From: Candidatus Omnitrophota bacterium
GTDB lineage: Bacteria; Omnitrophota; Gorgyraeia; Zapsychrales; Zapsychraceae
NCBI GenBank assembly: GCA_020429915.1
Contig: JAGQKV010000002.1
Location: 256,061-320,060 of the forward strand
Direction of reading: 5' to 3'
Length of the DNA stretch: 64,000 nt
Shown here: positions 34,676 through 61,095 of the stretch, in pieces
How positions within the stretch are numbered: position 1 is the first letter of the stretch
How the letters are laid out: each line of letters starts with the position of its first letter
Position numbers and translations under genes: made by a program
Notes under the pieces: generated by a model
Seen by the model: the letters and a program-made list of their open reading frames with translations, nothing else
What the model was told of the DNA's origin: nothing
Database searches by the model: none

Positions 34676-34957
34676 TCAACGCTTAGGATGGGGGCCGGTG
34701 GCAGCGGACCGAAACCGGTATCCGTTGAATACAATCGCCGGATAGCAGAGCAAGACTGTGAGGAAAATGAGGTAAATATTGCTGGTGAAATAACCGATGA
34801 CGCCGCACAGCAGGGAGATCAGCAAGATCGTGGCCGCCAATCCCGTCCAGTTCGGTGTCAACTCCAAAATCATCCGGCAGTGATTGCAGGTCCGCATCCT
34901 TCCCCGTTGCGCGAGCGCGCGCAGGGACAAGTGCTTTTGGCAGGAAGGACATTTCAA
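34676..34957 (-). CDS. small membrane protein with N-terminal zinc-ribbon (CxxC...CxxC) and two TM helices
   Basis: 93 aa; MKCPSCQKH...CNHCRM then hydrophobic helices; 17 nt downstream of ccsA stop. Confidence 0.45.
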   Translation of the reverse strand: MKCPSCQKHLSLRALAQRGRMRTCNHCRMILELTPNWTGLAATILLISLLCGVIGYFTSNIYLIFLTVLLCYPAIVFNGYRFRSAATGPHPKR

Positions 34958-34973
34958 AATGCCGTCTCCCGTT

Positions 34974-36905
34974 TTAGATCTTCATGCCTTTTTTGCCGAG
35001 CACGAACACCGTCACCGCCAGGAAAACCAACTCGAACAAAACATAGGTGATCAGTCCCATGGCAATGCCGGAGGTGAATCCGTAGGAATGCAGTCCGACG
35101 CTGAGCAGGTTGACACCGAACCACGCCCACATCACAACAATGAGCGTAAGGATAGAGCCGACGGCGACACCCAACGGGTGTATAAGTTTGGCCAATCGCA
35201 TATGAAACAGTAATGCCACCCACAGCACGATCATCAGCGCGCCGTTCTCTTTGGGGTCCCATCCCCAAAAACGTCCCCATGACTGATCGGCCCATATCCC
35301 TCCCAGCGCGGTGCCGAGAAAGGTCGTGGTGAGTCCGAAACCGAGAATGCCCAAGGTATTGTTCAGCGTGGCATTCAGGCGCTTGGTGTTCTTGGAATCA
35401 AACAGGGCCTGCAGGACATAAATATGCCCCATGATCCCACCCACGCAGCATCCGGCATAACCGATGGTAATGGTAATCACGTGAGTACTCAGCCAGAAAT
35501 TCGAATCAAGTACGGCCACCAGGACTTTCAGGGTGTCACCGTCCCCACCGAATTTCGAGGCAATTGTCAAAAAGATCAGACCACTGACGCTGGCAATGGT
35601 CAGGCCCAGCGAGTTGCGGTTGACCCACTCCAGAATAAATCCGAGAATAACGGCTATCAGCCCGACGAAAATGAATGTCTCAAACAGATTGCTGACTGGC
35701 GGGCGGGCCATGATCAAAATGCGCAGGATTTGTGCGATCAGATGAGGAACGAAACCGGCCACAGCAAGGACCGCCGCCGTACGTGACAGCCAGGGTCGGG
35801 AAGAAAGCAGGCTGAACAACAGAAACATAAAGGCCAAACCGTAACCCAGCTTGGCCCACAAAAATCCGTTGAAGTCATTGTAAAACAATTCCAGTCCGAA
35901 CCGGTCGTATTGCTCCTTCTCTTTCGGTGACAGCCGCTTGCCGACAGAATCCAGATAGGCCTTGGCTGCAATATTAAACTGCAACTGCTCGCCGTTCCAG
36001 TAGTACACGGTCATGTTGCGAATGTGTGTAATCTCGTCGAAGTAAGCCTCCTGGTCCACGTTCAGCCGCATGATGTCCATCGGGCTCAACCAGCTTTCCT
36101 CTTCATATCTGACGGTGGGAATGACACCGAACGGCGCGTTGCCGTAATGTTCGGTCCAGAAATACATCGCGTTGATCAATCGCGCCACGGTCTTACCTTC
36201 TTCACTCCACTGCTGCACATCCCCGCCGCGCAGGACCATGGCCGCGGCTTCCAGTTTGTCGGTGACCACATACAGGTCATAAAAACTAAATTTGTCCCGG
36301 TCCGTGGCCAGCCCAAGTTTCTCTTTAATTTCCGGAGACGTCAAATCAAAGTCCGGATGCGGAAAGGCGTAGGCAAAGGCACCCGAAATACGGATGTAAT
36401 AGCCGAGGTTCGAGTAAACGCGCAGGATCTCCCGTTCGACGGCGGAAAGTTCTTTTTCATCGATGTCCATGAGGACCTCGGCCAACTCTTTTATCTTGTC
36501 GTAACCCGGTTCCAGCTGACGCCATGAGTAACGCCGGCGTTTTTCCGGATCCACTTTTATCGCCTCGAGGATTTCCGGATTATTAATCAGAAAGATCTGG
36601 TCGCGATAGGTCGTCCGGGGTGCGAAAATAAACCGGGCGAACCACTCCAGCGCGCTCTCCTTACCGTATGAACGACGCCCAGACAAACGCAGCAGGAAGC
36701 TCTTGGCAAAGGTTTCCATCGGTTTGATGCGACCTTCGTTCAGGACGGGAATCCGGGCAAAGGCTTCAAGGTCATTGACCTTGGTGGGCTTCAGCGTGTC
36801 CAGCGGACAAATGTTCTGGGCCGTGGCGTTCCCGGAATACAGCAGTCCGGTCAGGACGGTCAGAAGCAAAAATCCGTTGCCGAGATTTCGGAGTTTATTT
36901 CGCAT
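34974..36905 (-). CDS. ccsA: cytochrome c biogenesis protein CcsA/ResC (System II), long form with N-terminal periplasmic domain
   Basis: Trp-rich WWD motif (WGRFWGWDPKENGALMIVLW) and conserved His residues in the C-terminal TM bundle; start trimmed to MRNKLRNLG (signal peptide), overlapping the 3' end of ccsB. Confidence 0.8.
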   Translation of the reverse strand: MRNKLRNLGNGFLLLTVLTGLLYSGNATAQNICPLDTLKPTKVNDLEAFARIPVLNEGRIKPMETFAKSFLLRLSGRRSYGKESALEWFARFIFAPRTTYRDQIFLINNPEILEAIKVDPEKRRRYSWRQLEPGYDKIKELAEVLMDIDEKELSAVEREILRVYSNLGYYIRISGAFAYAFPHPDFDLTSPEIKEKLGLATDRDKFSFYDLYVVTDKLEAAAMVLRGGDVQQWSEEGKTVARLINAMYFWTEHYGNAPFGVIPTVRYEEESWLSPMDIMRLNVDQEAYFDEITHIRNMTVYYWNGEQLQFNIAAKAYLDSVGKRLSPKEKEQYDRFGLELFYNDFNGFLWAKLGYGLAFMFLLFSLLSSRPWLSRTAAVLAVAGFVPHLIAQILRILIMARPPVSNLFETFIFVGLIAVILGFILEWVNRNSLGLTIASVSGLIFLTIASKFGGDGDTLKVLVAVLDSNFWLSTHVITITIGYAGCCVGGIMGHIYVLQALFDSKNTKRLNATLNNTLGILGFGLTTTFLGTALGGIWADQSWGRFWGWDPKENGALMIVLWVALLFHMRLAKLIHPLGVAVGSILTLIVVMWAWFGVNLLSVGLHSYGFTSGIAMGLITYVLFELVFLAVTVFVLGKKGMKI

Positions 36906-38064
36906 GCGGCGCTCCCTGCCGTTGACGTTTGCGTGTGTTGACAGCGGCCATGGCAAAGTGAATGACCAAACCGGCGAACGTCACAAAGGTTGAAATGTAG
37001 GGAAGGACACGTCCGTGATTCCGGACCACGGCCAGCGTCGAACTTTCATTGCGGAACTGGTCGACGGAAAATGATGACTGATAAAAGGTGTACTCCCGGT
37101 GCCGCAACGGATTATTCATGGTGATCGGCTTCTCCCGCCACTGCCCCCCGGTGTCGACGGCAACCTTGCTTTTGAAGCTGCGTGCCGTTTGCGTCCCCGG
37201 ATGCTCTTCCTTGATGAATTCCACCAGCTTGAGCGTAAACGGCATCGGGTAGCGTTTCAAGCGCAGGCTCAAATGATACGTCTTCCCACCGGCCTCGATC
37301 GGCGTCGGAATTCTTTCGGCACCGTAGAGTATGACGTGTGAACTGCCTTCGGGTGTTGTGACCTCCAGAATAATTCCCGGGGTATTGCGTTCCGGTTCCT
37401 TTTCCAATTTGGCGGCCTCAATTTTTTGCACGCCCGAGGCATTCAGATAGCGGCTGTCTCCGTCATTGACCGCATAGGCGTTGGCATTGCGATGATACTC
37501 GAGTAACTTGATAATGATCCCGCTGTCCTCCATCGGCAGCGGCTGGTTGATCTTCAAACGGGCGACATCGACTCCGGTCACCGTGCGGATTACTTTACCG
37601 TCGGTCCGTTCGGGCGGGGCCTCCCAGATTGCCAGCTCCCAATCATGAAAAGCCGATGAAACATTCGTGGCCTGGCCTTCCTTGAGGGTGACATGACTTT
37701 CTTCCGCCGTATTCAGAATCACGTAGCCCGAAACAAAAAACATCAGCAGACCGATATGGATGACAAGGATACCAAAATTTTTCCAACTGTAGACAAAGCG
37801 AATCAGCATAACCGCCAGGACGTTGATAAACAGGATCCACATAACCAGTTGCCCGCCGGGAAAGGGGATGAAGCCCAGAACCAGGAAATAAAAGGAATGA
37901 AAGAATCTTTCCTGGGCGAGATACAGTCCGCTCTGGACCTGCGCGATTGTCCCCCACAGAGTAAGCAGGAACAGCAAGAAAATACCCAGACAGGTGATTC
38001 TCAGCGAAGCCAGGGCTTGAAGAAGTTTGATTTTGCGTAATTTTTGTCGGAACTTTGAAGTCAT
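36895..38064 (-). CDS. ccsB: cytochrome c biogenesis protein CcsB/ResB (Ccs1)
   Basis: 389 aa; N-terminal TM helices, large periplasmic domain, C-terminal TM helix; classic ResB layout immediately upstream of ccsA. Confidence 0.8.
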   Translation of the reverse strand: MTSKFRQKLRKIKLLQALASLRITCLGIFLLFLLTLWGTIAQVQSGLYLAQERFFHSFYFLVLGFIPFPGGQLVMWILFINVLAVMLIRFVYSWKNFGILVIHIGLLMFFVSGYVILNTAEESHVTLKEGQATNVSSAFHDWELAIWEAPPERTDGKVIRTVTGVDVARLKINQPLPMEDSGIIIKLLEYHRNANAYAVNDGDSRYLNASGVQKIEAAKLEKEPERNTPGIILEVTTPEGSSHVILYGAERIPTPIEAGGKTYHLSLRLKRYPMPFTLKLVEFIKEEHPGTQTARSFKSKVAVDTGGQWREKPITMNNPLRHREYTFYQSSFSVDQFRNESSTLAVVRNHGRVLPYISTFVTFAGLVIHFAMAAVNTRKRQRQGAPHAK

Positions 38065-38897
38065 TATTTTTCCGCTATGGAAAGGATCAGATCGCGAAAG
38101 TCAGGCAATCGGGCGCTGATGGCCGCCTTGCCTCCTGTCATCTTGACGAATATCTGTGACCGGCCGCGGTCGATGATCGCGGCGATCATGCTGGGTGCGT
38201 CGGCCGGCGCGTCCGATTGCAGGGTGGTCAGGTCGACCAGCGTCAAGCTCAGCCCGGACGCGGTCGTGAGTTGTTCCTGTTCGGCCAGAAAACGCTGTAG
38301 ATCTGCATCGTTGACTGAAATATTGACTTGCCTTAACCAACGACCGACATTGGCCTGAAGACCGCCCGCGCTCCCACCAAGACTGATGATCGAAGTCTCG
38401 GTCGGTCCGACGCCTCCCGTCGTGGTGAACGTCGCGAGCCGCAAACCGCTTCCCTTCTGTTCCGACCAGCCGGCCGGTGTTTGCCAGACTAACGGGGAAC
38501 GGTCGACCGACTGTTCCAGTTCGGGGGTGACCGGCATCGTGCTCATGCTCATACCGCTCCCTGAATTCGCCGAAGATTGAGCCTGCAGTCCGGCGTGAAT
38601 GGCGTCATCCGGCATGGTGCGGCCGGCCAGGCCCGCGTGGATCTCGTCCTGGGGCATGTCGCCGGATCCCATGAGCCCGGAATGAATGGCATCTTGCGGC
38701 ATTTTATTTGGATCCAGCCCGGCATGGATGGCGTCCTGGGGCATGGATTTGTCCCCGGAGCGCATGGCATGCGGAGGAATCTGCGAACGGTCGGATTCGA
38801 TAAAGATCTCTTCGTAGTGCCGTGTGAGGGTGGGCTGGCCGCATCCGGATACAAGAAAGACAGCGACCAATGCAATATTTCGTCGAAAATTAGTCAT
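38064..38897 (-). CDS. lipoprotein with four tandem MPQDAIHAGL-type repeats
   Basis: 277 aa; lipobox VFLVSGC; repeats MPQDAIHAGLDPNK/MPQDAIHSGLMGSGD/MPQDEIHAGLAGRT/MPDDAIHAGLQAQ; C-terminal ~150 aa Gly/Thr-rich domain; stop abuts ccsB start. Confidence 0.65.
   Translation of the reverse strand: MTNFRRNIALVAVFLVSGCGQPTLTRHYEEIFIESDRSQIPPHAMRSGDKSMPQDAIHAGLDPNKMPQDAIHSGLMGSGDMPQDEIHAGLAGRTMPDDAIHAGLQAQSSANSGSGMSMSTMPVTPELEQSVDRSPLVWQTPAGWSEQKGSGLRLATFTTTGGVGPTETSIISLGGSAGGLQANVGRWLRQVNISVNDADLQRFLAEQEQLTTASGLSLTLVDLTTLQSDAPADAPSMIAAIIDRGRSQIFVKMTGGKAAISARLPDFRDLILSIAEK
38560..38770 (-). repeat. tandem ~42-45 nt coding repeats (4x) encoding the MPQDAIHAGL motif
   Basis: plus-strand copies ...GCCCGCGTGGATCTCGTCCTGGGGCAT / GCCCGGAATGAATGGCATCTTGCGGCAT / GCCCGGCATGGATGGCGTCCTGGGGCAT...; diverged at synonymous sites. 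Confidence 0.6.
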
Positions 38898-38907
38898 GGA
38901 ATTAAAA

Positions 38908-40425
38908 TCAGTTGCCGGTGTGACAGTCCGTACAGCTCATGTCTTCCCACAATCCGTCGTCCTCAAACGGATGAGTAAAGCCGAGCCCCCGGGTATCCCG
39001 TTCAAGATTGTCGGGCGGTCCCTGCTCTATAATGGAGTGACAGACAGTACAGTCTTTGGTGATGACCGCTCCGTCACTGCTGGTGTGCTCTCCGTCGTGG
39101 CAGCGGAAACATCCGGGAGCCACGAGATGGCCGATATTGTCCGGGTAGGCATCCCACCGGGCTTTCATTTCAGGGAACATGCTATTCTGGAACATTTTTT
39201 GCACGGATGCAACTGCTTTCTTGACCTGAGGCTCCCGGGTGGCAAAATTATCTCCCAATTCCTCACGGTAATGGGTTGTCAACTCCGTGTCAATCGTCTC
39301 CAAGGCTTCCGTTTCGCTTGTGTATTCCTTGGATAGCAATTCCATGGCTTTGCTTTTGATGCCCGGCAATTCAGGGTCGATCTCATTTGAGGCCATGGCC
39401 TGATTGAGGAGGCGGCTGGGATAGGGATAACGGTGTGTGGGGCGGTTGTGGCAATCCATACAATCCATTTTATGAATAACTTCCGCGGGCGGAGGCGTAT
39501 CCTTCCATTTGGAATCTTCAGAGGTGTAAACGGTCTCTTTTCCGTCTTTGTCCACGCTCTTCACCCACGTGACTTCCTGCAGACGCTCATCCTCGGCGGC
39601 AAAATAAATATCGTTGTCAATGTACATGTGCTTGTGAATTCCGCTGCCTTTTTCCGGCGTGCCGCCGACGTGAACCAGCATCCGTAGCAACCAGCTCGGA
39701 TGTTCGCTGTCGTATGCCGTGAAATATGTCTTGTTCATCTCGACGGAGGTGTACGATTTGCCCGGCCAATGGCAACGTTCACAAGTCTCCTCAGCGGGGC
39801 GCAGATTATGGACAGGGGTAGCGATCGGTCGGGAATAGTCGCCTTTGATCGTATGGTACACCTGCCGAATCCCCGAGATCTTGGCGCGGACATACCACTC
39901 CGCCCCTTCTCCGATGTGGCACTCCACGCACTTGACCCGGGCATGCGGGGAATTGATGTAGGTGGTGTGTTCGGGTTTCATCACATCGTGGCACATCAGA
40001 CCGCAAAAGGCCACCGACTCGGTGTACTGATAAGCCTTGTACGTGCCGATGGCCGTCATGATCAGCAGGATACCTGTGCCGAGGATAAAGACAAATATCG
40101 CATTGCGGTGGGACGGAACACTCGGGTCGATCCTGATCGGCCCCGGTTTGGACGCGGATTTCCCTTTCAGAACAGCCCGGCGTTTCAACAAGGCGCCCAC
40201 CGGAATCAGAAGCAGGCCGATGATCAGGAAAACGGGCAGAATCGCGTAGGTCAGTATCCCCAGATAGAGATTCTGACCGTGCGAGAAGAATTCAAAGGCG
40301 AACATCAACAACTCGACGATAAAAAAGAAAATCGCAATCAGAACGCCGATATACGTCGTCCAGTTGTAGAAATAGACCGAGAACTTTTGTTTGGGTGTCG
40401 GCACGTCCGCCGGTTGCTTACTCAA
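38908..40425 (-). CDS. inner-membrane multiheme c-type cytochrome, ImcH-like (7 heme motifs)
   Basis: 505 aa; two N-terminal TM helices; heme sites CGLMCH(CX3CH), CVECH, CERCH, CMDCH, CFRCH, CTVCH, CTDCH. Confidence 0.75.
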   Translation of the reverse strand: MSKQPADVPTPKQKFSVYFYNWTTYIGVLIAIFFFIVELLMFAFEFFSHGQNLYLGILTYAILPVFLIIGLLLIPVGALLKRRAVLKGKSASKPGPIRIDPSVPSHRNAIFVFILGTGILLIMTAIGTYKAYQYTESVAFCGLMCHDVMKPEHTTYINSPHARVKCVECHIGEGAEWYVRAKISGIRQVYHTIKGDYSRPIATPVHNLRPAEETCERCHWPGKSYTSVEMNKTYFTAYDSEHPSWLLRMLVHVGGTPEKGSGIHKHMYIDNDIYFAAEDERLQEVTWVKSVDKDGKETVYTSEDSKWKDTPPPAEVIHKMDCMDCHNRPTHRYPYPSRLLNQAMASNEIDPELPGIKSKAMELLSKEYTSETEALETIDTELTTHYREELGDNFATREPQVKKAVASVQKMFQNSMFPEMKARWDAYPDNIGHLVAPGCFRCHDGEHTSSDGAVITKDCTVCHSIIEQGPPDNLERDTRGLGFTHPFEDDGLWEDMSCTDCHTGN

Positions 40426-40446
40426 ATACTGATCTCCCGCGGCTTA

Positions 40447-42489
40447 CTACCAGTGATAATTAAAATCAACCCAGGCCACATGCGCAATATAATTACCGAA
40501 CTCCGATACAGAGGTCGTATCGTAATGATAGTACGCATAGTGCGGCTCGACCGACCAGTTTTTGTCCCGGGGAGCGTAGCTCATCGTGACTTCCGCCGTG
40601 TAGTAATCGTTGGATGCGGCCAGCGGCAGAGAGGAACTGGTAAAGTCGTTAAAATTGTCGGTAAACGTCTTGGCCACCGCCGCGGTGATCGACCACTCGT
40701 CCGTCGGCACATAGCTGGTGCTTACCAGCAGGCTTTGTAAGTCCGCGCTGAAACCGGGCAACACCGCCGGACTGGAACTAGATGCTGCCGGCGTGGTCGT
40801 GTTGGCGTCCTGGTAGGTATAAGAACCGTTAACGAATAATTCCTTCATCACCTGAACGAAAATATCATAGGTGAAGGTGTGCGAGCGGAAACGGGTCTCA
40901 ACCGTGTCCGACAGGCCCTGTACGCGGGTCTTGTACTTTTTTCCATTGAACTGGTAGCGCACCGAACTTTGCAACCATTTTAATGGTTTCCAGGTTAATT
41001 TTGTAGTGAATTCATCACCGATAACTTGGAGGGAGTCCACGAATGCGGAATTAATGGCTCCTGACGTATCAACTTCATCATCATAGTCATTATTCTCGTA
41101 CTTTCTCCGAGCCTGGAAGGTGATGTTGTAGAAACGGGACGGAATAATTCGTGTTCCCAGGGTATATTGGGCCTTCTTGGTCTTGGTTTCCGTGACCCGC
41201 TGCCAGTTGAACAGGTAATCGGAATCGCGCTGGATTTCATTGAGGTCGTTGTTCATTTCCGTTAATTCGATATCTCCGTAGATCGAGGCCTTCTCGATAC
41301 CCGTGTACTGAACGGCGAAGTTCTGGCCGAACTGCCAGAGTTTTTCGCGGGACTGGCTGTAATCGGTATCGTCAATAATACCGTCGGGTGTAGCAGGAGA
41401 GTCATCTGAGGGGTAGACTGATTCACCCTTACGCTTCATTAGCTGATTTCTGGACTTGACGGTAAAGCGCAGCGTTTTACTCAATTCGTACATATAGTGT
41501 CCAACAACGGTGTGACTGTCTACTTCATTGTATGCTTGGGCATTTACGATTTGATGTGCAAAACTGAAGTTTGTTGGAACGCCAAATTCATCGGACTCTA
41601 CAATATTCTCCACTTCCTCATTTTCGAGACTTGCATAACGGTATGCCAAATTCAGGTAGGACGTGTCCTCTTCCCCGAACCAGCGGTTGCCTTGGAATGT
41701 GGTGGTAAAGATGTCACTCTCAGGCTTCTGGTTTTGAGCCCTTTTCTTGCGTTGCGATGCGGTTGCTGCGGTGGAGAGCCAACGTTCGTAACGGGTGTTA
41801 TCTGAATCGGTCCGTTCGTAGGTCTGCTCTGCACTGACATTAAACCCGGCGATTTCGGTTCCCCCGCGGACGCCGAAGATATCGACCTTTTCATCAATAC
41901 TTTGATAGGTCGGAGTTATTTCCTTTGCCACGGCGCCCTCCCGGGCCTCCGCCCAATTGAGCCGTGATTTTTCTCCGTCTTTCATATGGTGCTCATACCA
42001 AACGAGCAAAGTAAACTGATCTCCGATCTCCGGAGCGAAAGAGAAAAACAGTGACTGGATATCTAATTCCAAATCGCGGTTTAAATCATTGCTTTGGAGT
42101 GTGGAAAATGGATAAAAGAATCCACCCGAATCATCGTAATACTTGCGGAAGCTTTCGTATACAAATTGAAAAGCCCCGATACCGGGATTGGAATATTTAA
42201 CATTTGCTTCATGATCGTTGTCATCCGGAAGACTATGACCTTCAAAAGTAAGCATGCTGTCGTCTTCGTACTCCTTGCTGAAGAAGAGGTCTTTGATCCC
42301 TCCCGAGTAACCTTCGTCCATCCAGTGGTGGGCACGGAATTTCTTCTCGTCGCCTTTTACTTCCACATTCTTAGCTGGAGTAACGGTGATGGAAAACTCT
42401 TCGCCTTCCGCCGCCTCCGCCGGGGAATTCGGCAATACCGCGGCCCAGCCGATCAGTCCGAACAATAAGAGGAATGAAAATTTTCTCAT
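40447..42489 (-). CDS. large outer-membrane beta-barrel (porin-like) protein
   Basis: 680 aa; signal peptide (LLFGLIGWAAVLPNSPAEA); Tyr/Trp/Phe-rich alternating pattern throughout; C-terminus ...VAWVDFNYHW (aromatic terminal residue). Confidence 0.65.
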   Translation of the reverse strand: MRKFSFLLLFGLIGWAAVLPNSPAEAAEGEEFSITVTPAKNVEVKGDEKKFRAHHWMDEGYSGGIKDLFFSKEYEDDSMLTFEGHSLPDDNDHEANVKYSNPGIGAFQFVYESFRKYYDDSGGFFYPFSTLQSNDLNRDLELDIQSLFFSFAPEIGDQFTLLVWYEHHMKDGEKSRLNWAEAREGAVAKEITPTYQSIDEKVDIFGVRGGTEIAGFNVSAEQTYERTDSDNTRYERWLSTAATASQRKKRAQNQKPESDIFTTTFQGNRWFGEEDTSYLNLAYRYASLENEEVENIVESDEFGVPTNFSFAHQIVNAQAYNEVDSHTVVGHYMYELSKTLRFTVKSRNQLMKRKGESVYPSDDSPATPDGIIDDTDYSQSREKLWQFGQNFAVQYTGIEKASIYGDIELTEMNNDLNEIQRDSDYLFNWQRVTETKTKKAQYTLGTRIIPSRFYNITFQARRKYENNDYDDEVDTSGAINSAFVDSLQVIGDEFTTKLTWKPLKWLQSSVRYQFNGKKYKTRVQGLSDTVETRFRSHTFTYDIFVQVMKELFVNGSYTYQDANTTTPAASSSSPAVLPGFSADLQSLLVSTSYVPTDEWSITAAVAKTFTDNFNDFTSSSLPLAASNDYYTAEVTMSYAPRDKNWSVEPHYAYYHYDTTSVSEFGNYIAHVAWVDFNYHW

Positions 42490-42504
42490 GATGAGCTCCT
42501 TCTA

Positions 42505-43272
42505 CTAGTATCGTAAGTGGTCATCAAAATTTGAACCGTGGATAGCCGTATGGCAGCCTCCACTGAAGCACGTTCCCCGCGTCAGGCGGCCGCTGTGATT
42601 GGAATCCCCGATACTCGGAAAATTCATTTGGGTGTGGCAGCGCAAACAAAGGTTGTTATCACGGACTTTCAACATCTTGTCGTGAATCGAACCGTGCACC
42701 TTGTGACATGTGGTGCAGCCTTCACCGACGGCTTCGTGCTCAAAGACGAACGGACCGCGCTGTTCCTTGTGACATTGAAAACACTTGCCGTTGACCCCGT
42801 CGAGTGAGGTGCTGGTCCAGGGTTGGGCATCGGTGCCGTGGGAATTATGGCAGTCGGCACAGGCCATCTTTCCTTCCATGACCGGATGGCGGAACGGCAG
42901 GCGAAACTCGGCTTGCTTATCGAGGTGACAAGAAAAACAGAGTTCCGGATTGCGGCGCGGGTTGAAGATATTGTCTTTCCCGCCCCCTTCTTCAACGTGG
43001 ACGCTACCGGGCCCGTGGCACATTTCACAGCCTTGCGGCTCCCCACTGTCGTCTGCAAAGCTGATCCGTGAATGCGTCGATAGTTTGAATTCCCGTTCCT
43101 GGTCCTCATGGCAGGCAACACACATGTCGCTGCCGACGTACTCTGCTCCTTCCACTTCGCTGAAGAGTTTTTGCAACGAGGCCGCCTCAACGGCCGTCGA
43201 GGTCAGTGTGAGCGTTCCCAGTAAGCCGGCAACAGCGCACAACTGTATGAGGATGGGTTTAAAGTGGCTCAT
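42505..43272 (-). CDS. periplasmic multiheme c-type cytochrome (~8 hemes)
   Basis: Start trimmed to MSHFKPILIQLCAVAGLLG (signal peptide; the track ORF extends to 43305). Heme motifs: CVACH, CEMCH, CFSCH, CADCH, CFQCH, CTTCH, CLRCH plus CFSGGCH (CX4CH). Confidence 0.8.
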   Translation of the reverse strand: MSHFKPILIQLCAVAGLLGTLTLTSTAVEAASLQKLFSEVEGAEYVGSDMCVACHEDQEREFKLSTHSRISFADDSGEPQGCEMCHGPGSVHVEEGGGKDNIFNPRRNPELCFSCHLDKQAEFRLPFRHPVMEGKMACADCHNSHGTDAQPWTSTSLDGVNGKCFQCHKEQRGPFVFEHEAVGEGCTTCHKVHGSIHDKMLKVRDNNLCLRCHTQMNFPSIGDSNHSGRLTRGTCFSGGCHTAIHGSNFDDHLRY

Positions 43273-43308
43273 AAGGCGGCTCCTTTCTACGTTTCTCCTG
43301 GACAATAT

Positions 43309-43851
43309 TTATTCTCCTGATGCCTCTTGGGTGGCATTCAGGGCGTATTCCGGTGTCTTGTCGGCAAGCATCGTCTTGACTTCCTCCGTTGCAGCCGCGG
43401 TTTCGGTGACCATCGTCTGTGTTTGTTTGACCATTTCCTGTGTTTGAGAAACCATATCCTTGGTTTCTTCCACTAAATCGCGCGTTTCTTCGACCAGACG
43501 TGCCGTCTCCGCAGTTGTTTTTCCGGCGTTTTCAGCAGGAGTGAGAGCCGACATATCGTCTCCGGCCTCGGCGGCGGCTTCAAAATCTTCATGGCTGCCA
43601 ACTCCGCGGATCATTTCTTCGGTCAATGCCTCTCCATTCATCAATTCCTGCAACTTTTGTCCATAGGCATTGAGGTCATGTTTGCCGTCGTCTTTTTTCG
43701 GTTTTTCATCCACATGGCAGTAGCTACATTTCGGTTTGTAATCAGGATAGACTTCCCGGTACGCCTTGAGTTGTTTCACATTAGCCTGCGCCACGGGTAC
43801 GACGGCGGCGAATATGAACAGGACGGCGAAGGCTATTGATAATTTCTTCAT
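43309..43851 (-). CDS. monoheme cytochrome c with C-terminal Thr/Glu-rich repeat tail
   Basis: 180 aa; signal peptide; single CSYCH; C-terminal repeats (ETRDLVEETKDMVSQTQEMVKQTQTMVTE). Confidence 0.7.
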   Translation of the reverse strand: MKKLSIAFAVLFIFAAVVPVAQANVKQLKAYREVYPDYKPKCSYCHVDEKPKKDDGKHDLNAYGQKLQELMNGEALTEEMIRGVGSHEDFEAAAEAGDDMSALTPAENAGKTTAETARLVEETRDLVEETKDMVSQTQEMVKQTQTMVTETAAATEEVKTMLADKTPEYALNATQEASGE

Positions 43852-43861
43852 GGTATCTCCT

Positions 43862-44935
43862 TTATAGGGAAAGCACGGCTTTCCGTTGTTGACTGTCTTT
43901 TTCTTTGTTGTTCAAATATTGAGAACGCGTCGAGAGTTTGCGGTAAAACTCCCGAATCTTAGCGGTAATAATCTTCTCCACTTCATAAGCGGCGGCCAGC
44001 CGTTTGCGGACGTTATAGGCCACGACCCGGTCCAATTCATCGACACCGACCAATGTCACGCCCGGAATGTCTGCGGTCGCCGGATCGATGTTGCGTGGAA
44101 CGGATAAATCAATCAAGAGCAACCCCTTGTCGCGTTGGCGGCATGCCGTCTTAACAGTTTCCCTGTCAATGAGATAATATGGCGCGCTTGAAGAGCAAAT
44201 ACAGATATCCACGCGGGGCAGGACTTGAGCCAGGTCTTCCAACGGCAGGGTCGCGGCGCCGAAAGTTTCCGCCAGCTGCTCCCCTTTGCTGCGGGTACGA
44301 TTCATGACGTAAACCTTTTCGGCGCCCTTGCGCTTGAGGTCGCCGATCGCCAGGCGGCTCATTTTGCCGGCGCCGATAATCAGTACGGAACTATGTCTGA
44401 GCTCGGGAACGGTTTTCCGGATCAATTCGACGGCTGCCCAGCTGACGGAAACACCACCGCGACCGATCTCCGTTTGATTTCGGGCGAGTTTTCCGGTCCG
44501 GATTGTGAGATTAAATAATATGTTCAAAAAGGGCCCCGTCATCCGGTGTGTGCGTGCAAGTTCGATCGCGGCCTTGACTTGTCCTAGAATTTCCTTTTCC
44601 CCGATAATCAGTGAGTCGAGACCGGCGGCAACCCGTAGCAGGTGGCGGATCGCTTTTTCACCGGAATAGGCATAAAAACAATTCAAATCGGTTTCGGGAT
44701 CGTGGACGCCCTTAACGTGGCACAGCAGTTCTAAAAGGAGGTGCGGTTGGTTTACGGTGAGTACGGCGTAGATTTCCGTGCGGTTACAGGTGGAAATGAT
44801 GATGGCTTCGTTGACGCTCGGGCAAGCCTGGAACTCGTCTAAGAGCATGTCTTTGTCAGCTGGATGAAGATAGTATTTTTCACGGATGTCCACCGGGCAT
44901 GTCCGATGACTGATCCCCATGCATATGACGTACAT
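43862..44935 (-). CDS. hemA: glutamyl-tRNA reductase
   Basis: Start trimmed to MYVICMGISHRTCPVDIREKYY (GGGGAG Shine-Dalgarno site); catalytic Cys region, NADPH-binding GAGKMS Rossmann motif, C-terminal dimerisation helix. Confidence 0.85.
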   Translation of the reverse strand: MYVICMGISHRTCPVDIREKYYLHPADKDMLLDEFQACPSVNEAIIISTCNRTEIYAVLTVNQPHLLLELLCHVKGVHDPETDLNCFYAYSGEKAIRHLLRVAAGLDSLIIGEKEILGQVKAAIELARTHRMTGPFLNILFNLTIRTGKLARNQTEIGRGGVSVSWAAVELIRKTVPELRHSSVLIIGAGKMSRLAIGDLKRKGAEKVYVMNRTRSKGEQLAETFGAATLPLEDLAQVLPRVDICICSSSAPYYLIDRETVKTACRQRDKGLLLIDLSVPRNIDPATADIPGVTLVGVDELDRVVAYNVRKRLAAAYEVEKIITAKIREFYRKLSTRSQYLNNKEKDSQQRKAVLSL

Positions 44936-45047
44936 GGTATACTCCCCCGAGTTTGTTAACTTTGGCTTCATTATAAGCATGAAAATGCTATAATTAAAAT
45001 TATATTTTCTTAAATTAACGATTAAATTTTCTAATACCTAAGGAACG

Positions 45048-45938
45048 GTGATGGTTAATATTCATTTTCTCAAGACGTTCATCAGCCTGGCCCGCACCCG
45101 TTCTTTTCAGGCGGCCGCGCGGGAGAATTCCGTCACCCAGTCCGCGGTTTCCCAGCAGATCCGTACCCTGGAGTCCCGCGTTATGAAACCACTGATCCTC
45201 CGCGCCGGAAAAAAGCTGGAATTAACGCCGGAGGGAACCATTTTTTTGGAGTATGCCGAGAATATCGTCAACCAATATGAAGAGGCCGTCCACAAACTCG
45301 CATGCAGCACCGAAGAACGCAGCGGTACGGTCCGGCTGTCAACGATCTACAGCGTGGGCTTGTATCGCCTGCAACCGGTCATCAAGAAATTTCTGCGAAA
45401 GTACCGGAAAATCAATGTGCATCTCGAATATCATCACAATGATATTATTTACCAGCGCGTGCGTGAAAATGTGGATGACTTCGGATTAGTCGCCTTTCCA
45501 CATGCCACGGGGAGAATCGAGTGTCACAATTGGGCGATGGATGAGCTGGTTTTAATTCAAAACGTCCAGCGGCCGCAATTCACTGAAAAATCCGTGTCCG
45601 CGGACAAGTTGGGACAAGTTCCGTACGTGGCCCTCTCCTCAACTACGCCGACCGGCAAGGAAATCCACAAACGCTTGCGTGACCTGAATGTCAGCGTGAA
45701 TCCGGTGGCGGACTTTGAGAATGTGGAGACGCTTAAGAGCGCCGTCCATGTAGGGATGGGATGCGCCATTGTTCCGAAGAATATTCTGAAGAGTGAGACC
45801 AAGTCGGGGGCTTTTGAAATAATCAAGCTGCGTCAGTTTGAAGGCTCGCGCCCCATCGGGATCATTACCGCCAAGGATCGCCCCGAATTACCGGCGCGGC
45901 GCTTATTCCTTAAGTCCGTCTTGCGACATGTTTCGTGA
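45048..45938 (+). CDS. LysR-family transcriptional regulator
   Basis: 296 aa; N-terminal wHTH (FLKTFISLARTRSFQAAARENSVTQSAVSQQIRTLE) and C-terminal substrate-binding domain; divergent from hemA. Confidence 0.85.
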   Translation: MMVNIHFLKTFISLARTRSFQAAARENSVTQSAVSQQIRTLESRVMKPLILRAGKKLELTPEGTIFLEYAENIVNQYEEAVHKLACSTEERSGTVRLSTIYSVGLYRLQPVIKKFLRKYRKINVHLEYHHNDIIYQRVRENVDDFGLVAFPHATGRIECHNWAMDELVLIQNVQRPQFTEKSVSADKLGQVPYVALSSTTPTGKEIHKRLRDLNVSVNPVADFENVETLKSAVHVGMGCAIVPKNILKSETKSGAFEIIKLRQFEGSRPIGIITAKDRPELPARRLFLKSVLRHVS

Positions 45939-47210: not shown

Positions 47211-47780
47211 TTACTCCCTCATGAGTTGCTGTATCAAGCGTTCAATGGCGAACCAGTCGAAACTGCCGAACCGCTGAAAACGGATACGGCCTTCTTTGTC
47301 GATGATGACAATTTCCGGGGTCCCCCGGATTCCGTAGGCTTGCATGGTTAATGGGGTCGGATTCCCCGGTGCGTGACGGTCGACCGCTACCGGATGCCGG
47401 ATCTTCTTCTCCGAAACGAACTGCAGCAGCCGCTGCGGAGTTTGGACATCATGCCCTTCAAACACCGAGTGGATACTGATCAACGCGATTTCCGGGTTGC
47501 CGCGAAACATTTTTTCCCACTTGATCATTAGCGGAATGGAAAAACGGTTGCATCCCGGGCACCACAGTTGGAAAAATTCGACAACGACAACTCTCCCCCG
47601 CAATTGCTGCAACGTGATCGGCTCGGTATTGATCCAGCCGCTGACTTGCCATTCCGGGGCCGTCTCCGGAGCCGAACTGTCCTCGGCAACTGCGGATTGC
47701 ACAGTCAGCGCGAGAGTCAGGACCGAAAACAGGCAAAAATATCGAAATGCGGACATAAGGCTATTATGCCATGCCGACAT
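47211..47780 (-). CDS. TlpA/ResA-like periplasmic thiol:disulfide oxidoreductase (thioredoxin fold)
   Basis: 189 aa; signal peptide; WCPGC active site. Confidence 0.75.
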   Translation of the reverse strand: MSAWHNSLMSAFRYFCLFSVLTLALTVQSAVAEDSSAPETAPEWQVSGWINTEPITLQQLRGRVVVVEFFQLWCPGCNRFSIPLMIKWEKMFRGNPEIALISIHSVFEGHDVQTPQRLLQFVSEKKIRHPVAVDRHAPGNPTPLTMQAYGIRGTPEIVIIDKEGRIRFQRFGSFDWFAIERLIQQLMRE

Positions 47781-58449: not shown

Positions 58450-60552
58450 TTACTCAAAGCCGAGCAGGCGTCCGCCCTGGTAGACCAGCAGGGCGGCCAG
58501 ATAGGCGAGGCCGGTCATGTAGAGGATTTGAAAGGCGGTCCATTGCCAGGATCCGGTCTCGCGATACACCACCGCGACCGTACTGGCACATTGCATCGCG
58601 TAGACATAGAAGACCATCAAACCCAGACAGACCAGCGGCGTAAATAACGGCCGCCCGTCCGGCCATTGCGCCCGGCGGAAGTTTTCCCGCAGGACATCCG
58701 TCTCGGCCTCCTCCTCAAGGTTGAACACAATGTTCATGGTCGAGACAAACACCTCGCGCGCGGCAAAGGATCCGATCAGACCGATGCCGATACGCCAGTC
58801 ATATCCCAGCGGCTTGATCACCGGTTCGATGGCGGTGCCGATCTGTCCGGCGACACTGTGCCGCAGCTGTTCGGACGCCGGGAGCTGGTCGTTTTTGGGA
58901 AAGGACATGAGCACCCATAGCGCTACCGACATCATCAAAATGATGGTCCCGGCGCGTTTTAAAAATTGCCGACTGCGCTCCCACATTTGTAACAACACCG
59001 CCCGCAGGGACGGCATACGGTACGGCGGCAGTTCCATAATAAACAGCGGCTTCTGACTTTTGAGCAGGGTTTTTTTGAAGATCCAGGCCACCACCCCGAC
59101 ACCGGCGGTACCCAAGGCATACATTAGTAACATGATCCCTGATTTTTCCCAGGCATCGGCGTTGGGAATCAGCACGGCGATCATAATCGTATACACGGGC
59201 AATCTCGCCGAACAGCTCATCAGCGGCGCAACCATGACGGTCACCAACCGGTCCCGCCGGCTTTCGATCGTGCGGGCGGCCATAACCCCGGGGATGGCGC
59301 AGGCGTAAGAACTCAACAACGGAATAAAGGATTTTCCGTGCAAGCCGACTTTGCTCATTAGCCGGTCCATGATGAAGGCCGCACGCGCCATGTATCCGGT
59401 GTCCTGCAACAATCCGATGAAGAAAAAGAGAATCAGAATCTGGGGCAGAAAGATGACGACTCCTCCCACACCGGCAATAATGCCGTTGCTGATCAGGTCC
59501 GCCAGTGCATTGTCGGGCAACGCGGTTTGTATCCATCCCGCCAGAGCCGCGAAGGCGCTGTCGATCCATTCCATCGGATAAGAGGCGATCGTAAAAATCG
59601 TATAAAACATCAGCGCCATGACCGCAATGAAAAACAGCCAGCCGAAAATCCGGTGGGTTAAGATAGCGTCGAGTCGTTCGGTGAGATCGGCCTTACGGGT
59701 CTTGGGTTCGCGGACCGTCTTGGCGATTATCGTTTTGATCCACGCGTAACGGGCCTCCACCGCGGCTGACCGCGCCCGCAGGCCCTGGCGCTTGAGACGG
59801 TCCTGGACCGTGTTGATTTGTTCGATAAGTTCGGCCTTGTAAAACTTTCCCTGGGTGTCGGTGGCATTCTCGCTCATCCGCCCGACCGAGAATATCGACA
59901 TCGCCTCAGAGAAGGCCTGGGCATTATCCATGCCTTCGTGCCGTTGCAGCAGACGGACGATATGCTCGACCTCTTCTTCCAAATCCGGGGCCATCCGCCA
60001 TTGCCGGGTATAGTCGGCGCGGACGCCGGCCCGGATGTGTTCCTTCAATTCCTCCAGGCCTCGCCCCTGATTCGCAACCAGGGGGATAACCGGCACGCCG
60101 AGTTCTCGGCTGAGCGCGCCGGTATCGATCTGCCGGCCCTGCTTCTCGACTTCGTCCATCATGTTCAGGGCGACCACGATCGGCAGTCCCAAGTCCATAA
60201 TTTGACAGACGAGATATAAGTTCCGTTCGATATTGCTGGCGTCGACCACGCAGACAACCAGGTCCGGACGGGGCGTATCCGGAGCGCGGTCCAACAGGAC
60301 GTCGCGGGCGATTTGTTCATCCGGAGATCGTACCGCCAGGCTATAAGTGCCGGGCAGGTCCAGGACATTGACCGTCCGGCCGCCTTCCAGGGTCAGGGTG
60401 CCGGTCTTCTTCTCAACGGTCACCCCGGCATAGTTTCCGACCTTTTGCCGGAGCTTCGTCAAGGCGTTAAAGACGGTGGTTTTTCCGGAATTCGGATTCC
60501 CGGCCAGGGCGATGGTCTTAGGTACGATTTGATTGGATACTTCGGCAGGCAT
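58450..60552 (-). CDS. feoB: ferrous iron transporter FeoB
   Basis: 700 aa; N-terminal G-protein domain (GNPNSGKTT, DLPG), then the gate/nucleoside-recognition membrane domains. Confidence 0.9.
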   Translation of the reverse strand: MPAEVSNQIVPKTIALAGNPNSGKTTVFNALTKLRQKVGNYAGVTVEKKTGTLTLEGGRTVNVLDLPGTYSLAVRSPDEQIARDVLLDRAPDTPRPDLVVCVVDASNIERNLYLVCQIMDLGLPIVVALNMMDEVEKQGRQIDTGALSRELGVPVIPLVANQGRGLEELKEHIRAGVRADYTRQWRMAPDLEEEVEHIVRLLQRHEGMDNAQAFSEAMSIFSVGRMSENATDTQGKFYKAELIEQINTVQDRLKRQGLRARSAAVEARYAWIKTIIAKTVREPKTRKADLTERLDAILTHRIFGWLFFIAVMALMFYTIFTIASYPMEWIDSAFAALAGWIQTALPDNALADLISNGIIAGVGGVVIFLPQILILFFFIGLLQDTGYMARAAFIMDRLMSKVGLHGKSFIPLLSSYACAIPGVMAARTIESRRDRLVTVMVAPLMSCSARLPVYTIMIAVLIPNADAWEKSGIMLLMYALGTAGVGVVAWIFKKTLLKSQKPLFIMELPPYRMPSLRAVLLQMWERSRQFLKRAGTIILMMSVALWVLMSFPKNDQLPASEQLRHSVAGQIGTAIEPVIKPLGYDWRIGIGLIGSFAAREVFVSTMNIVFNLEEEAETDVLRENFRRAQWPDGRPLFTPLVCLGLMVFYVYAMQCASTVAVVYRETGSWQWTAFQILYMTGLAYLAALLVYQGGRLLGFE

Positions 60553-60555
60553 GAT

Positions 60556-61095
60556 TTAGGCGGCGATATTCACCAGGATCAGTTCCGCCTCCTCGCGCCG
60601 GAGAGAAAGCATATAACCGCGGACTTTGATTTCGACCGGGTCCCCGAGAGGAGCAAAACGGATGATTTCAATCTGTTCACCCGGGGTTAGGCCCATTTCT
60701 TCCAGCCGCGCGCAGGTGTCATTCTCCTCGAGAAAATCATGAACGCGGCCGGTCTGCCCCACGGTCAGTTCGCTGAGACGTTTGATGTCCTCTTGTTCAG
60801 CCATGTCTCCCTCCGCTGGTTGCGGGCATTGACCGACAATGACGTTGCGGGCCAATCCTTCACTGATAATGATTTTGGAATCACAGACTTTGCAGATAAA
60901 CGCCGAGTTATGCGCGATCATCTGTATTTGGGCATTCTCGCAAAAGCCCATCTCCCGCAGGCGCTGGCATTCGCCATGATCTCCGCGGAGACATTCGATC
61001 AGCACCTGCTCTCCCGCACAGACATCGCACAGGCTCTTGCTGTCCGTGACGGGCGCGGGCTGCGTCCCTTTTTGTTTCTTGATCAAGTTCAACAT
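60556..61095 (-). CDS. feoA: tandem FeoA-domain protein (two FeoA/SH3-like domains), first with Cys cluster
   Basis: 179 aa; two FeoA-like halves (...GEQVLIECLRGD...CENAQIQMIAHN...; ...GQTGRVHDFLEEN...GLTPGEQIEIIRFAPLGDPVEIKVRGYMLSLRREEA); first half contains CDVC...C...C; 3-nt gap to feoB. Confidence 0.75.
   Translation of the reverse strand: MLNLIKKQKGTQPAPVTDSKSLCDVCAGEQVLIECLRGDHGECQRLREMGFCENAQIQMIAHNSAFICKVCDSKIIISEGLARNVIVGQCPQPAEGDMAEQEDIKRLSELTVGQTGRVHDFLEENDTCARLEEMGLTPGEQIEIIRFAPLGDPVEIKVRGYMLSLRREEAELILVNIAA

Follow-up and report, generated by a model that had tools for sequence, protein, structure and literature searches.

The described systems closest to the locus analyzed in this study are the MtrCAB conduit of Shewanella (6R2Q), the two-part MtoAB and PioAB systems of Sideroxydans/Gallionella and Rhodopseudomonas, respectively, and the Geobacter Pcc conduit (OmbB-OmaB-OmcB), which has been called non-homologous to Mtr in the literature. 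The locus lies in a stretch of 64,000 nucleotides from a Candidatus Omnitrophota bacterium (GenBank assembly GCA_020429915.1, contig JAGQKV010000002.1, positions 256,061 to 320,060), hereafter the window, and its minus strand encodes three cytochromes, an outer-membrane barrel, and genes for making cytochrome c. We consider it likely that the locus is an operon for an MtrAB/MtoAB-type conduit across the outer membrane, which is fed by the inner-membrane cytochrome ImcH and packaged with the cytochrome c-making genes. What is new in the operon is its architecture; the kind of system is known, and so are the families of its members.

As in MtrCAB, a wire of the MtrA family is encoded beside a large barrel. 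Compared with MtrCAB, the wire is two hemes shorter (8 against 10), CX4CH is the last of its heme motifs, and the barrel could not be matched directly to MtrB by sequence. Furthermore, the locus encodes no decaheme surface lipoprotein of the MtrC type, and ImcH takes the place of CymA at the inner membrane. MtoAB and PioAB are likewise two-part porin-cytochrome systems without a surface cytochrome; however, they are decaheme and have been proposed for Fe(II) oxidation, whereas the wire in the window is octaheme. The locus further differs from MtoAB in its monoheme protein, a mini-cytochrome that resembles PSCyt1 and not a class I cytochrome c, and in its inner-membrane partner, ImcH. The Geobacter Pcc conduit also combines an octaheme periplasmic cytochrome with an outer-membrane barrel, but the cytochrome in the window is homologous to MtrA/DmsE and is accompanied by no OmcB-type lipoprotein cytochrome, the likeness to OmaB and OmbB being by description only. 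In Geobacter sulfurreducens, imcH is not clustered with an outer-membrane conduit, whereas here the two share an operon, and the conduit belongs with the Mtr systems of Shewanella, not with the Pcc/Ext systems of Geobacter.

Parts of this arrangement are already on record. He et al. (2017, PMC5615132) reported a new porin gene beside a periplasmic cytochrome with eight conserved heme sites in Verrucomicrobia and proposed a new porin-cytochrome complex, and a 2026 preprint described Mtr-like porin-cytochrome clusters in peat Verrucomicrobiota and Acidobacteriota (bioRxiv 10.64898/2026.05.27.727921). We found homologs of the window pair in many metagenome-assembled genomes (MAGs) of these two phyla, including Limisphaerales and palsa/SPRUCE peat MAGs; matched by description and taxa, the core pair is probably represented among the published clusters. 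The homologs that we found in these two phyla differ from the locus in the window: their barrel is fused to a PSCyt1 domain, and imcH, hemA, and ccsBA are not linked to the pair. A 2018 survey stated that no mtrAB or mtoAB was adjacent to imcH (Zhong and Shi, PMC6295460), unlike the Omnitrophota and Pelobacter loci examined in this study, in which an MtrAB-like pair adjoins imcH; three 505-aa ImcH homologs from Omnitrophica were already included in that survey.

Omnitrophota are mostly ultra-small cells, many of which have host-dependent traits, and FeGenie matches to Desulfovibrio ferrophilus-type cytochromes were reported in 10 of 23 Omnitrophia species (Seymour et al. 2023). The corresponding "metal-reducing cytochromes" of D. 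ferrophilus (DFE_0461-0465) were rejected as the same system because they differ in containing NHL beta-propellers. No description of the cluster analyzed here was found for Omnitrophota in the open-access literature. An earlier note on this DNA, made from the letters alone, had suggested an undescribed variant; the suggestion held for the Omnitrophota operon, of which we found no description, but not for the pair of an 8-heme cytochrome and a porin (PMC5615132) or for Omnitrophica ImcH (PMC6295460), both of which were known.

Gene content of the locus

Nine minus-strand open reading frames (ORFs) lie within 34,676-44,980 of the window, each overlapping the next or separated from it by no more than 21 nt (successive distances of 10, 3, 15, 21, 10, and -1 nt, an overlap, and 16 nt), and this spacing was counted in favor of an operon. 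We employed the gene calls of an identical contig in the European Nucleotide Archive (ENA) to set the start positions, which placed the start of hemA at 44935 (357 aa), that of the octaheme gene at 43272 (255 aa; the ORF comprises 266 aa), and that of ccsA at 36905 (643 aa). The genes are as follows.

43862..44935, minus strand: hemA, glutamyl-tRNA reductase, short form (TIGR01035; GlutR_N and Shikimate_DH)
43309..43851, minus strand: small secreted monoheme cytochrome (signal peptide, single CXXCH as CSYCH, 180 aa)
42505..43272, minus strand: periplasmic octaheme cytochrome of the MtrA/DmsE family (7 CXXCH and one CX4CH)
40447..42489, minus strand: outer-membrane beta-barrel, MtrB-like, with ~26-28 predicted strands (680 aa)
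38908..40425, minus strand: ImcH-type inner-membrane heptaheme cytochrome, putatively quinol-oxidizing (505 aa, three transmembrane segments, CX3CH and 6 CXXCH)
38064..38897, minus strand: lipoprotein with a lipobox, a His-motif linker, and a predicted Mog1/PsbP/DcrB-like domain
36895..38064, minus strand: ResB/CcsB, System II cytochrome c synthase subunit (PF05140, 389 aa)
34974..36905, minus strand: CcsA, System II heme-handling subunit (PF01578)
34676..34957, minus strand: 93-aa CxxC...CxxC protein with two hydrophobic segments, of doubtful membership

Each part belongs to a recognizable family or fold. The nine packed genes of the earlier note were all present, but the ninth is a doubtful member. 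The 93-aa protein is called as a gene on the identical contig and matches TIGR04104 weakly (21 bits; cut-off 45); no counterpart was found in any related locus compared, including the closest syntenic relative, L007, and its membership of the module is therefore doubtful. Motif counts bore out the periplasmic cytochrome with seven CXXCH and one CX4CH and the monoheme CSYCH protein, and the 680-aa barrel with an aromatic end was likewise found as the note had described it (...NYHW). Its placement of hemA and System II in the same block agreed with the family matches. The note was also right that no outer-membrane multiheme lipoprotein of the OmcB type is encoded, because the three cytochromes of the cluster are the only heme-motif ORFs in the whole window.

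The octaheme cytochrome and the outer-membrane barrel

The octaheme cytochrome has an N-terminal signal peptide ending in VEA/A, and its seven CXXCH motifs are followed by CFSGGCH as the last motif. It matched MtrA (6R2Q_A) at E 3.3e-35 and NrfB at 2e-7, and scored 184.5 bits against NF041028, the cut-off of which is 325. Two MtrA alignments overlap in the octaheme query, indicating that a two-heme unit is missing; judged by these alignments, the octaheme cytochrome is MtrA minus two hemes.

The barrel gene follows 15 nt downstream of the octaheme gene. Its product contains no Cys; a Candidatus Omnitrophica MAG encodes a protein with 97% identity to it, and exact copies are present in several ENA metagenome assemblies. 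A high-confidence structure model predicted a large barrel of ~26 strands with an MtrB-like fold, and the top match of the model in the PDB was MtrB, on which it superimposed over 560 aligned residues. The 22-strand TonB-dependent receptors came next in the structure search, with ~410-430 residues aligned. Among the distant homologs of the barrel, P0023, P0025, and P0027 (E ~1e-37 to the window barrel) scored 31-35 bits against PF11854 (MtrB_PioB), above the cut-off of 23; the homologs that pass this profile are from Verrucomicrobiota and Planctomycetota and also carry an N-terminal PSCyt1 monoheme domain. These findings suggest that the protein is a divergent MtrB-like barrel, which would function in the manner of MtrB and is probably a remote member of the MtrB superfamily.

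The same comparisons bear on an explanation without any trans-membrane wire, in which the locus would combine a periplasmic module, for example for Nrf-like nitrite or sulfite reduction, with an ordinary substrate porin or a TonB-type transporter. Such an explanation would draw on the NrfH and NrfB matches, but both are weak, sub-threshold, and directed at the shared NapC/NirT and pentaheme cores. The NrfH match (54 bits; cut-off 134.2) is confined to the NapC/NirT core that is common to ImcH, MtrA is ahead of NrfB by 28 orders of magnitude, no CXXCK motif is present in the nine proteins, and no further heme-motif ORF is available in the window; the Nrf-type assignment was rejected. A nutrient porin or TonB-dependent receptor was rejected as well, since MtrB was aligned over 130 more residues than any receptor and scored higher, and no plug-domain or TonB-receptor family was found for the barrel in Pfam or NCBIfam. 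We consider an arrangement without a wire highly improbable.

The inner-membrane cytochrome

ImcH was defined by Zhong and Shi (PMC6295460) as a protein of 495-519 aa with three N-terminal transmembrane helices, a CX3CH motif beside the membrane domain, and six CXXCH motifs. The 505-aa cytochrome of the window carries CGLMCH (CX3CH) and six CXXCH at positions 141, 166, 215, 322, 439, 459, and 498, and its hydrophobic segments lie at 19-37, 51-69, and 107-125. The motif count of the earlier note thus stood, whereas its two transmembrane helices became three hydrophobic segments. In GSU3259, the ImcH of Geobacter, the heme motifs are at 132, 156, 205, 311, 428, 448, and 486, and the transmembrane helices at 13-35, 45-67, and 100-122 (PMC6295460 Table S3). 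The proposed menaquinol-site residues of GSU3259 and the Gln distal ligand of heme 1 are E127, K173, Q179, and Y188 (bioRxiv 10.1101/2023.05.03.539133); E136, K182, Q188, and Y197 of the window protein match them by the +9 offset of the heme-1 motif, which is a positional correspondence only. A Pfam NapC/NirT N-terminal match covers residues 107-201, that is, the third transmembrane segment and the first hemes, as described for ImcH.

The window protein therefore resembles GSU3259 in length, in its three transmembrane segments, in its CX3CH and six CXXCH motifs, in heme spacing, and, by position, in the quinol-site residues. By these sequence features, the inner-membrane cytochrome is ImcH. 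A total of 6,714 ImcH homologs were found, many of them in Omnitrophota.

Conservation of the module in relatives

To define the distribution of the module, a barrel profile was scanned against one genome per species, which yielded 104 species; tblastn was then used to search 89 loci with the nine window proteins, and ~85 loci were examined for heme motifs. In essentially all the loci counted, the gene immediately upstream of the barrel gene encodes an 8-heme cytochrome (7 CXXCH and one CX3-4CH), and nearly all of them keep the 7+1 pattern. The loci belong to Omnitrophota, Desulfobacterota, Planctomycetota, Verrucomicrobiota, Acidobacteriota, and others, and an exhaustive HMMER search put the size of the barrel family at ~1,250 clusters (50% identity), of which 616 had E<=1e-30. 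The strict pairing of the octaheme and barrel genes across phyla is a hallmark of porin-cytochrome complexes and argues further against a periplasmic module with an unrelated porin.

The surroundings of the pair differ between phyla. In Omnitrophota, and in a few MAGs with the label Planctomycetales, the monoheme, octaheme, barrel, and ImcH genes occur together with hemA and, in most cases, with ResB-CcsA, and this linkage is kept down to 25-32% barrel identity with a rearranged gene order (L007, L008, L009, L012, L013, L016, L020, L021, L024, and L081). The hemA gene is linked to the module in L003, L007-L009, L011-L013, L016, L020, L021, L024, and L081; ccsBA is located upstream in L008, L009, L012, L016, and L021 and downstream in the window and L007. 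In L009, a CbcL-like gene follows that of ImcH. In Desulfobacterota, the pair stands alone or has ImcH directly upstream (Pelobacter sp. UBA6093, L014). In Verrucomicrobiota, Acidobacteriota, and others, where the barrel carries the fused PSCyt1 domain, no other multiheme gene was found within 10 kb.

Conserved synteny, the comparison with ordinary porin, OmpA, and FadL families, and the comparison with the NrfH/NrfB class had all been named in the earlier note as checks on its porin-cytochrome interpretation. The module was kept in relatives, the best structural match of the barrel was MtrB, and the periplasmic cytochrome had the better match to MtrA (E 3e-35 as opposed to 2e-7 for NrfB), and the inner-membrane cytochrome had the architecture and, by position, the quinol-site residues of ImcH rather than those of a four-heme NrfH. 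Each check that was run favored the interpretation, which proved essentially right.

Several Omnitrophota loci form superclusters around the conduit, with CbcL-like, Rieske/cytochrome b, and NrfC/NrfD-like genes and further 9-13-heme cytochromes (L003/L010, 4003-13951; L091, 1153-6232; L009, 11513-13393). Module contigs were also present in MAGs titled Pedobacter, Bifidobacterium/Bifidobacteriaceae, or Akkermansia muciniphila (L026, L035, L038, L052, and L069); these labels are unlikely for the module genes and suggest mis-binning or mislabelling.

The monoheme protein

We further analyzed the small monoheme protein, 11 orthologs of which were found upstream of the octaheme gene in Omnitrophota-type loci. 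The orthologs share a core of ~70 aa (K.YKEAYPD.KPKC..CH.DE.PKK.DG.H[DE].N.YG...PTADTYKKVG.IEDFKK). In an hhalign comparison, the monoheme family aligned with the N-terminal PSCyt1 domain of the fused barrels (probability 80%, E 1.3e-5, 26 columns), and the aligned stretch was the heme-binding C..CH.DEKPK[KS]. If real, this relationship, with the domain separate in Omnitrophota and fused to the barrel in other phyla, argues that the monoheme protein docks on the periplasmic side, at either the barrel or the wire; as a gene-fusion hint drawn from sequence comparison, it is suggestive of a physical partnership.

The tail of ~90 aa (window 43309-43580) is acidic and rich in Glu, Thr, and Val, with coiled-coil-like repeats and weak matches to DUF4726 and DUF948. 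Orthologs of 90-110 aa lack the acidic tail, which is lineage-specific. In L020 (1886-3265), a locus from a MAG labelled Planctomycetales, hemA and the monoheme gene form one 459-aa ORF with an internal signal peptide, which is probably the result of a lost stop codon or an assembly error and not a real fusion.

Heme synthesis, System II, and the lipoprotein

The hemA product scored 339 bits against TIGR01035 (cut-off 209.55), contains both GlutR_N and Shikimate_DH, and has a visible STCNRTE motif. The match covers profile positions 1-334 of 416, indicating that the C-terminal dimerization domain is absent. Short forms of 345-357 aa were also observed in the related Omnitrophota loci L003, L007, L008, and L009.

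ResB-family and CcsA-family membrane proteins are encoded together, as in System II. ResB matched PF05140 at 9e-15 and has four hydrophobic segments, and its gene is adjacent to that of CcsA in related loci. CcsA matched PF01578 at residues 421-623 (3.6e-23) and reached 125 bits against TIGR03144, below the cut-off of 187.6; by eye, WGRFWGWD was taken as its WWD motif. The locus differs from System II as described in two respects, namely an N-terminal CcsA extension of ~360 aa and a preceding, translationally coupled lipoprotein with His motifs and a predicted Mog1/PsbP fold. The extension has no family match and comprises one membrane anchor and a large, presumably periplasmic region; it is shorter in L008 and L009.

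The lipobox of the lipoprotein is followed by a disordered linker (~100 aa) in which the MPxDxIHxGL motif occurs four times, and its C-terminal domain is well predicted and models as a Mog1/PsbP/DcrB-like fold. It contains one Cys and no CXXCH, and its stop codon overlaps the ResB start. The gene is also located directly upstream of ResB-CcsA in L007, L008, L090, and L091; in L008, it is duplicated in tandem, with hemA between the lipoprotein and barrel genes. A metagenome scan for the lipoprotein yielded 113 relatives, of which 80 loci were kept and 66, with at least 700 bp downstream, were informative. ResB followed immediately downstream in ~62-63 of the 66 informative loci (~95%), whereas conduit genes were rare nearby (barrel in 2 and ImcH in 6 of the 80 kept loci). 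Traveling with ResB-CcsA and nearly always without a conduit, the lipoprotein is thus a companion of ResB/CcsA and not a substitute for a surface cytochrome. The earlier note had placed this His-repeat protein in the slot of the outer-membrane cytochrome; the absence of a heme motif, the Mog1/PsbP fold, and the association with ResB-CcsA rather than with the barrel led us to reject that placement.

ResB comprises 389 aa in the window and ~570 aa in loci without the lipoprotein. The possibility that the longer ResB contains the lipoprotein domain as a fusion was rejected (hhalign probability 0.2%). The lipoprotein may be an unrecognized component, or third subunit, of System II, and a role of its His motifs in handling heme or apocytochrome is speculation. 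We know of no such lipoprotein subunit for System II. Neither the lipoprotein-ResB-CcsA unit nor the monoheme family was found described in the open-access literature. The lipoprotein family is unnamed, and the unit that it forms with a short ResB and CcsA, in which the three genes are translationally coupled, was observed in more than 60 metagenomic contigs (L090, L091, and L092-L171).

These data also bear on the packaging of the locus. It is conceivable that the co-location has no special meaning and that hemA, the lipoprotein, ResB, and CcsA are housekeeping genes alongside which a conduit was inserted. The lipoprotein-ResB-CcsA unit has no barrel or ImcH nearby in ~95% of the lipoprotein loci; in L090, where no cytochrome gene is nearby, its neighbors are hemN, hemE, and a gene resembling protoporphyrinogen oxidase, and the position of ccsBA relative to the conduit varies between relatives. 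Nevertheless, the linkage of hemA and ccsBA to the conduit outlasts rearrangement down to the lowest barrel identities compared, which argues for selected co-inheritance or co-regulation. We regard a chance packaging as plausible, although we lean against it; moreover, it is compatible with a conduit fed by ImcH, because it concerns the packaging and not the function of the conduit.

Proposed electron path and its direction

By analogy with the homologs, the parts would assemble into a complex, with the monoheme protein as an auxiliary carrier and with electrons flowing outward. ImcH would oxidize menaquinol at its membrane-proximal heme 1, and the electrons would run along its seven hemes into the periplasm and pass to the octaheme MtrA-like wire, either directly or through the monoheme cytochrome. 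The wire would be threaded through the MtrB-like barrel with its terminal heme exposed at the surface. With no surface cytochrome of the MtrC/OmcB type encoded, electrons would leave from the exposed heme itself, either to acceptors that are soluble or colloidal, for example chelated Fe(III) or humic quinones, or to a partner cell or mineral in contact with it. HemA would provide the committed step of heme synthesis, and ResB-CcsA with the lipoprotein partner would attach heme to the 16 heme-binding sites.

Several observations weigh against this proposal. The octaheme protein scored 174.8 bits against TIGR03508 (DmsE/MtrA), below the cut-off of 192.2, and it has 8 hemes where the family has ten CXXCH motifs. 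Searches of Pfam and NCBIfam with a limit as loose as E<=10 gave no family for the barrel itself, PF11854 and TIGR03509 included, and a profile of 31 barrel homologs did not retrieve MtrB among PDB sequences; the proposed link to MtrB is drawn from the modelled fold and from transitive homology. Similarly, the apparent likeness of the monoheme protein to PSCyt1 spans 26 columns only and is unseen by Pfam, which has no match for the window protein and, with hits allowed up to E<=10, none between the monoheme family and PSCyt1. A surface cytochrome could lie outside the 64-kb window. Two further observations concern direction: by analogy, the MtrAB-type pairs that lack a surface cytochrome, MtoAB and PioAB, are those proposed for Fe(II) oxidation, and in L008, genes of a heme-copper oxidase (COX1/COX2) lie 9 kb from the module, which makes inward or bidirectional flow possible.

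Outward flow nonetheless appears the more probable direction. Published surveys have placed ImcH in Fe(III) reducers only, while members of the CymA and CbcL/MtoC families are known from reducers and oxidizers alike (PMC6295460), and this restriction of ImcH was counted for outward flow together with the CbcL-like neighbor of ImcH in L009, which mirrors the outward pathway of Geobacter. The purified ImcH of Geobacter oxidized menaquinol and reduced periplasmic cytochromes, and was redox-active from -350 to -150 mV (bioRxiv 10.1101/2023.05.03.539133).

In the opposite direction, the locus would act like MtoAB/PioAB and import electrons, the donor being Fe(II), a mineral, a partner cell, or a surface resembling a cathode, with the monoheme protein as an MtoD-like branch point and ImcH reversed as a quinone reductase. 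A monoheme cytochrome and an inner-membrane quinone-reactive cytochrome in one cluster would fit this direction, as in the mtoA-mtoB-mtoD-cymA layout of Sideroxydans. The absence of a surface multiheme cytochrome from the window and the oxidase genes of L008 also fit, as do the Rieske/cytochrome b genes inside the clusters of L003 and L091. The potential range and demonstrated menaquinol oxidation of ImcH and its distribution among Fe(III) reducers stand against it, and we judge inward flow unlikely; the rest of our expectation falls on bidirectional flow or another arrangement.

Genes and features around the locus

A regulator gene diverges from hemA, with an AT-rich gap of ~110 bp between the two genes.

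45048..45938, plus strand: LysR-type regulator (HTH_1 and LysR_substrate on the identical contig)

Its position is kept in L007 (46% identity) but not in more distant loci, and the LysR-type protein is a candidate regulator of the operon. A scan for promoters and terminators gave counts not above the shuffled expectation and did not inform the limits of the operon, and Rfam and tRNA scans of the window revealed only a tRNA-Val at 55.0 kb. The GC content is ~0.50 over 40001-44000, which covers the barrel, octaheme, and monoheme genes, compared with a window average of ~0.55; the dip may reflect gene composition or past transfer.

A TlpA/ResA-like redoxin with a CPGC motif, secreted or anchored, is encoded at 47211-47780 on the same strand, 2.2 kb upstream of hemA, and could serve the thiol-reduction branch of System II. 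The redoxin and its neighbors were rejected as parts of the module because they are not conserved near related loci. At 58450-61095, a 700-aa ORF with a GNPNSGKTT G-domain motif is followed by a 179-aa ORF; by motif only, the two resemble FeoB/FeoA of ferrous-iron uptake.

Implications

Two elements of the locus are possibly new. One is the mini-cytochrome, which is either a separate protein or a domain of the barrel, and the other is a lipoprotein accessory to System II; the conserved unit of the latter with ResB and CcsA hints at a part of System II maturation that has gone unstudied. We also put forward, as a doubtful proposition, a broader picture in which the octaheme-barrel pair is a widespread minimal conduit of at least seven phyla and the Omnitrophota version is a transferable island with ImcH (sometimes CbcL), hemA, and a three-part System II, the lipoprotein being the third subunit, through which such cells might trade electrons directly with a host or partner cell and not with minerals.

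Since unfused barrels match no Pfam or NCBIfam family, surveys based on such models may undercount the potential for extracellular electron transfer in groundwater, peat, and sediments. A conduit of 8 hemes and two or three proteins would also appeal to synthetic bioelectronics as a minimal part. The locus combines an inner-membrane quinol oxidase of the Geobacter type with an outer-membrane wire of the Shewanella type and, if functional, would represent a single-operon blueprint for extracellular electron transfer in a phylum without cultured members.

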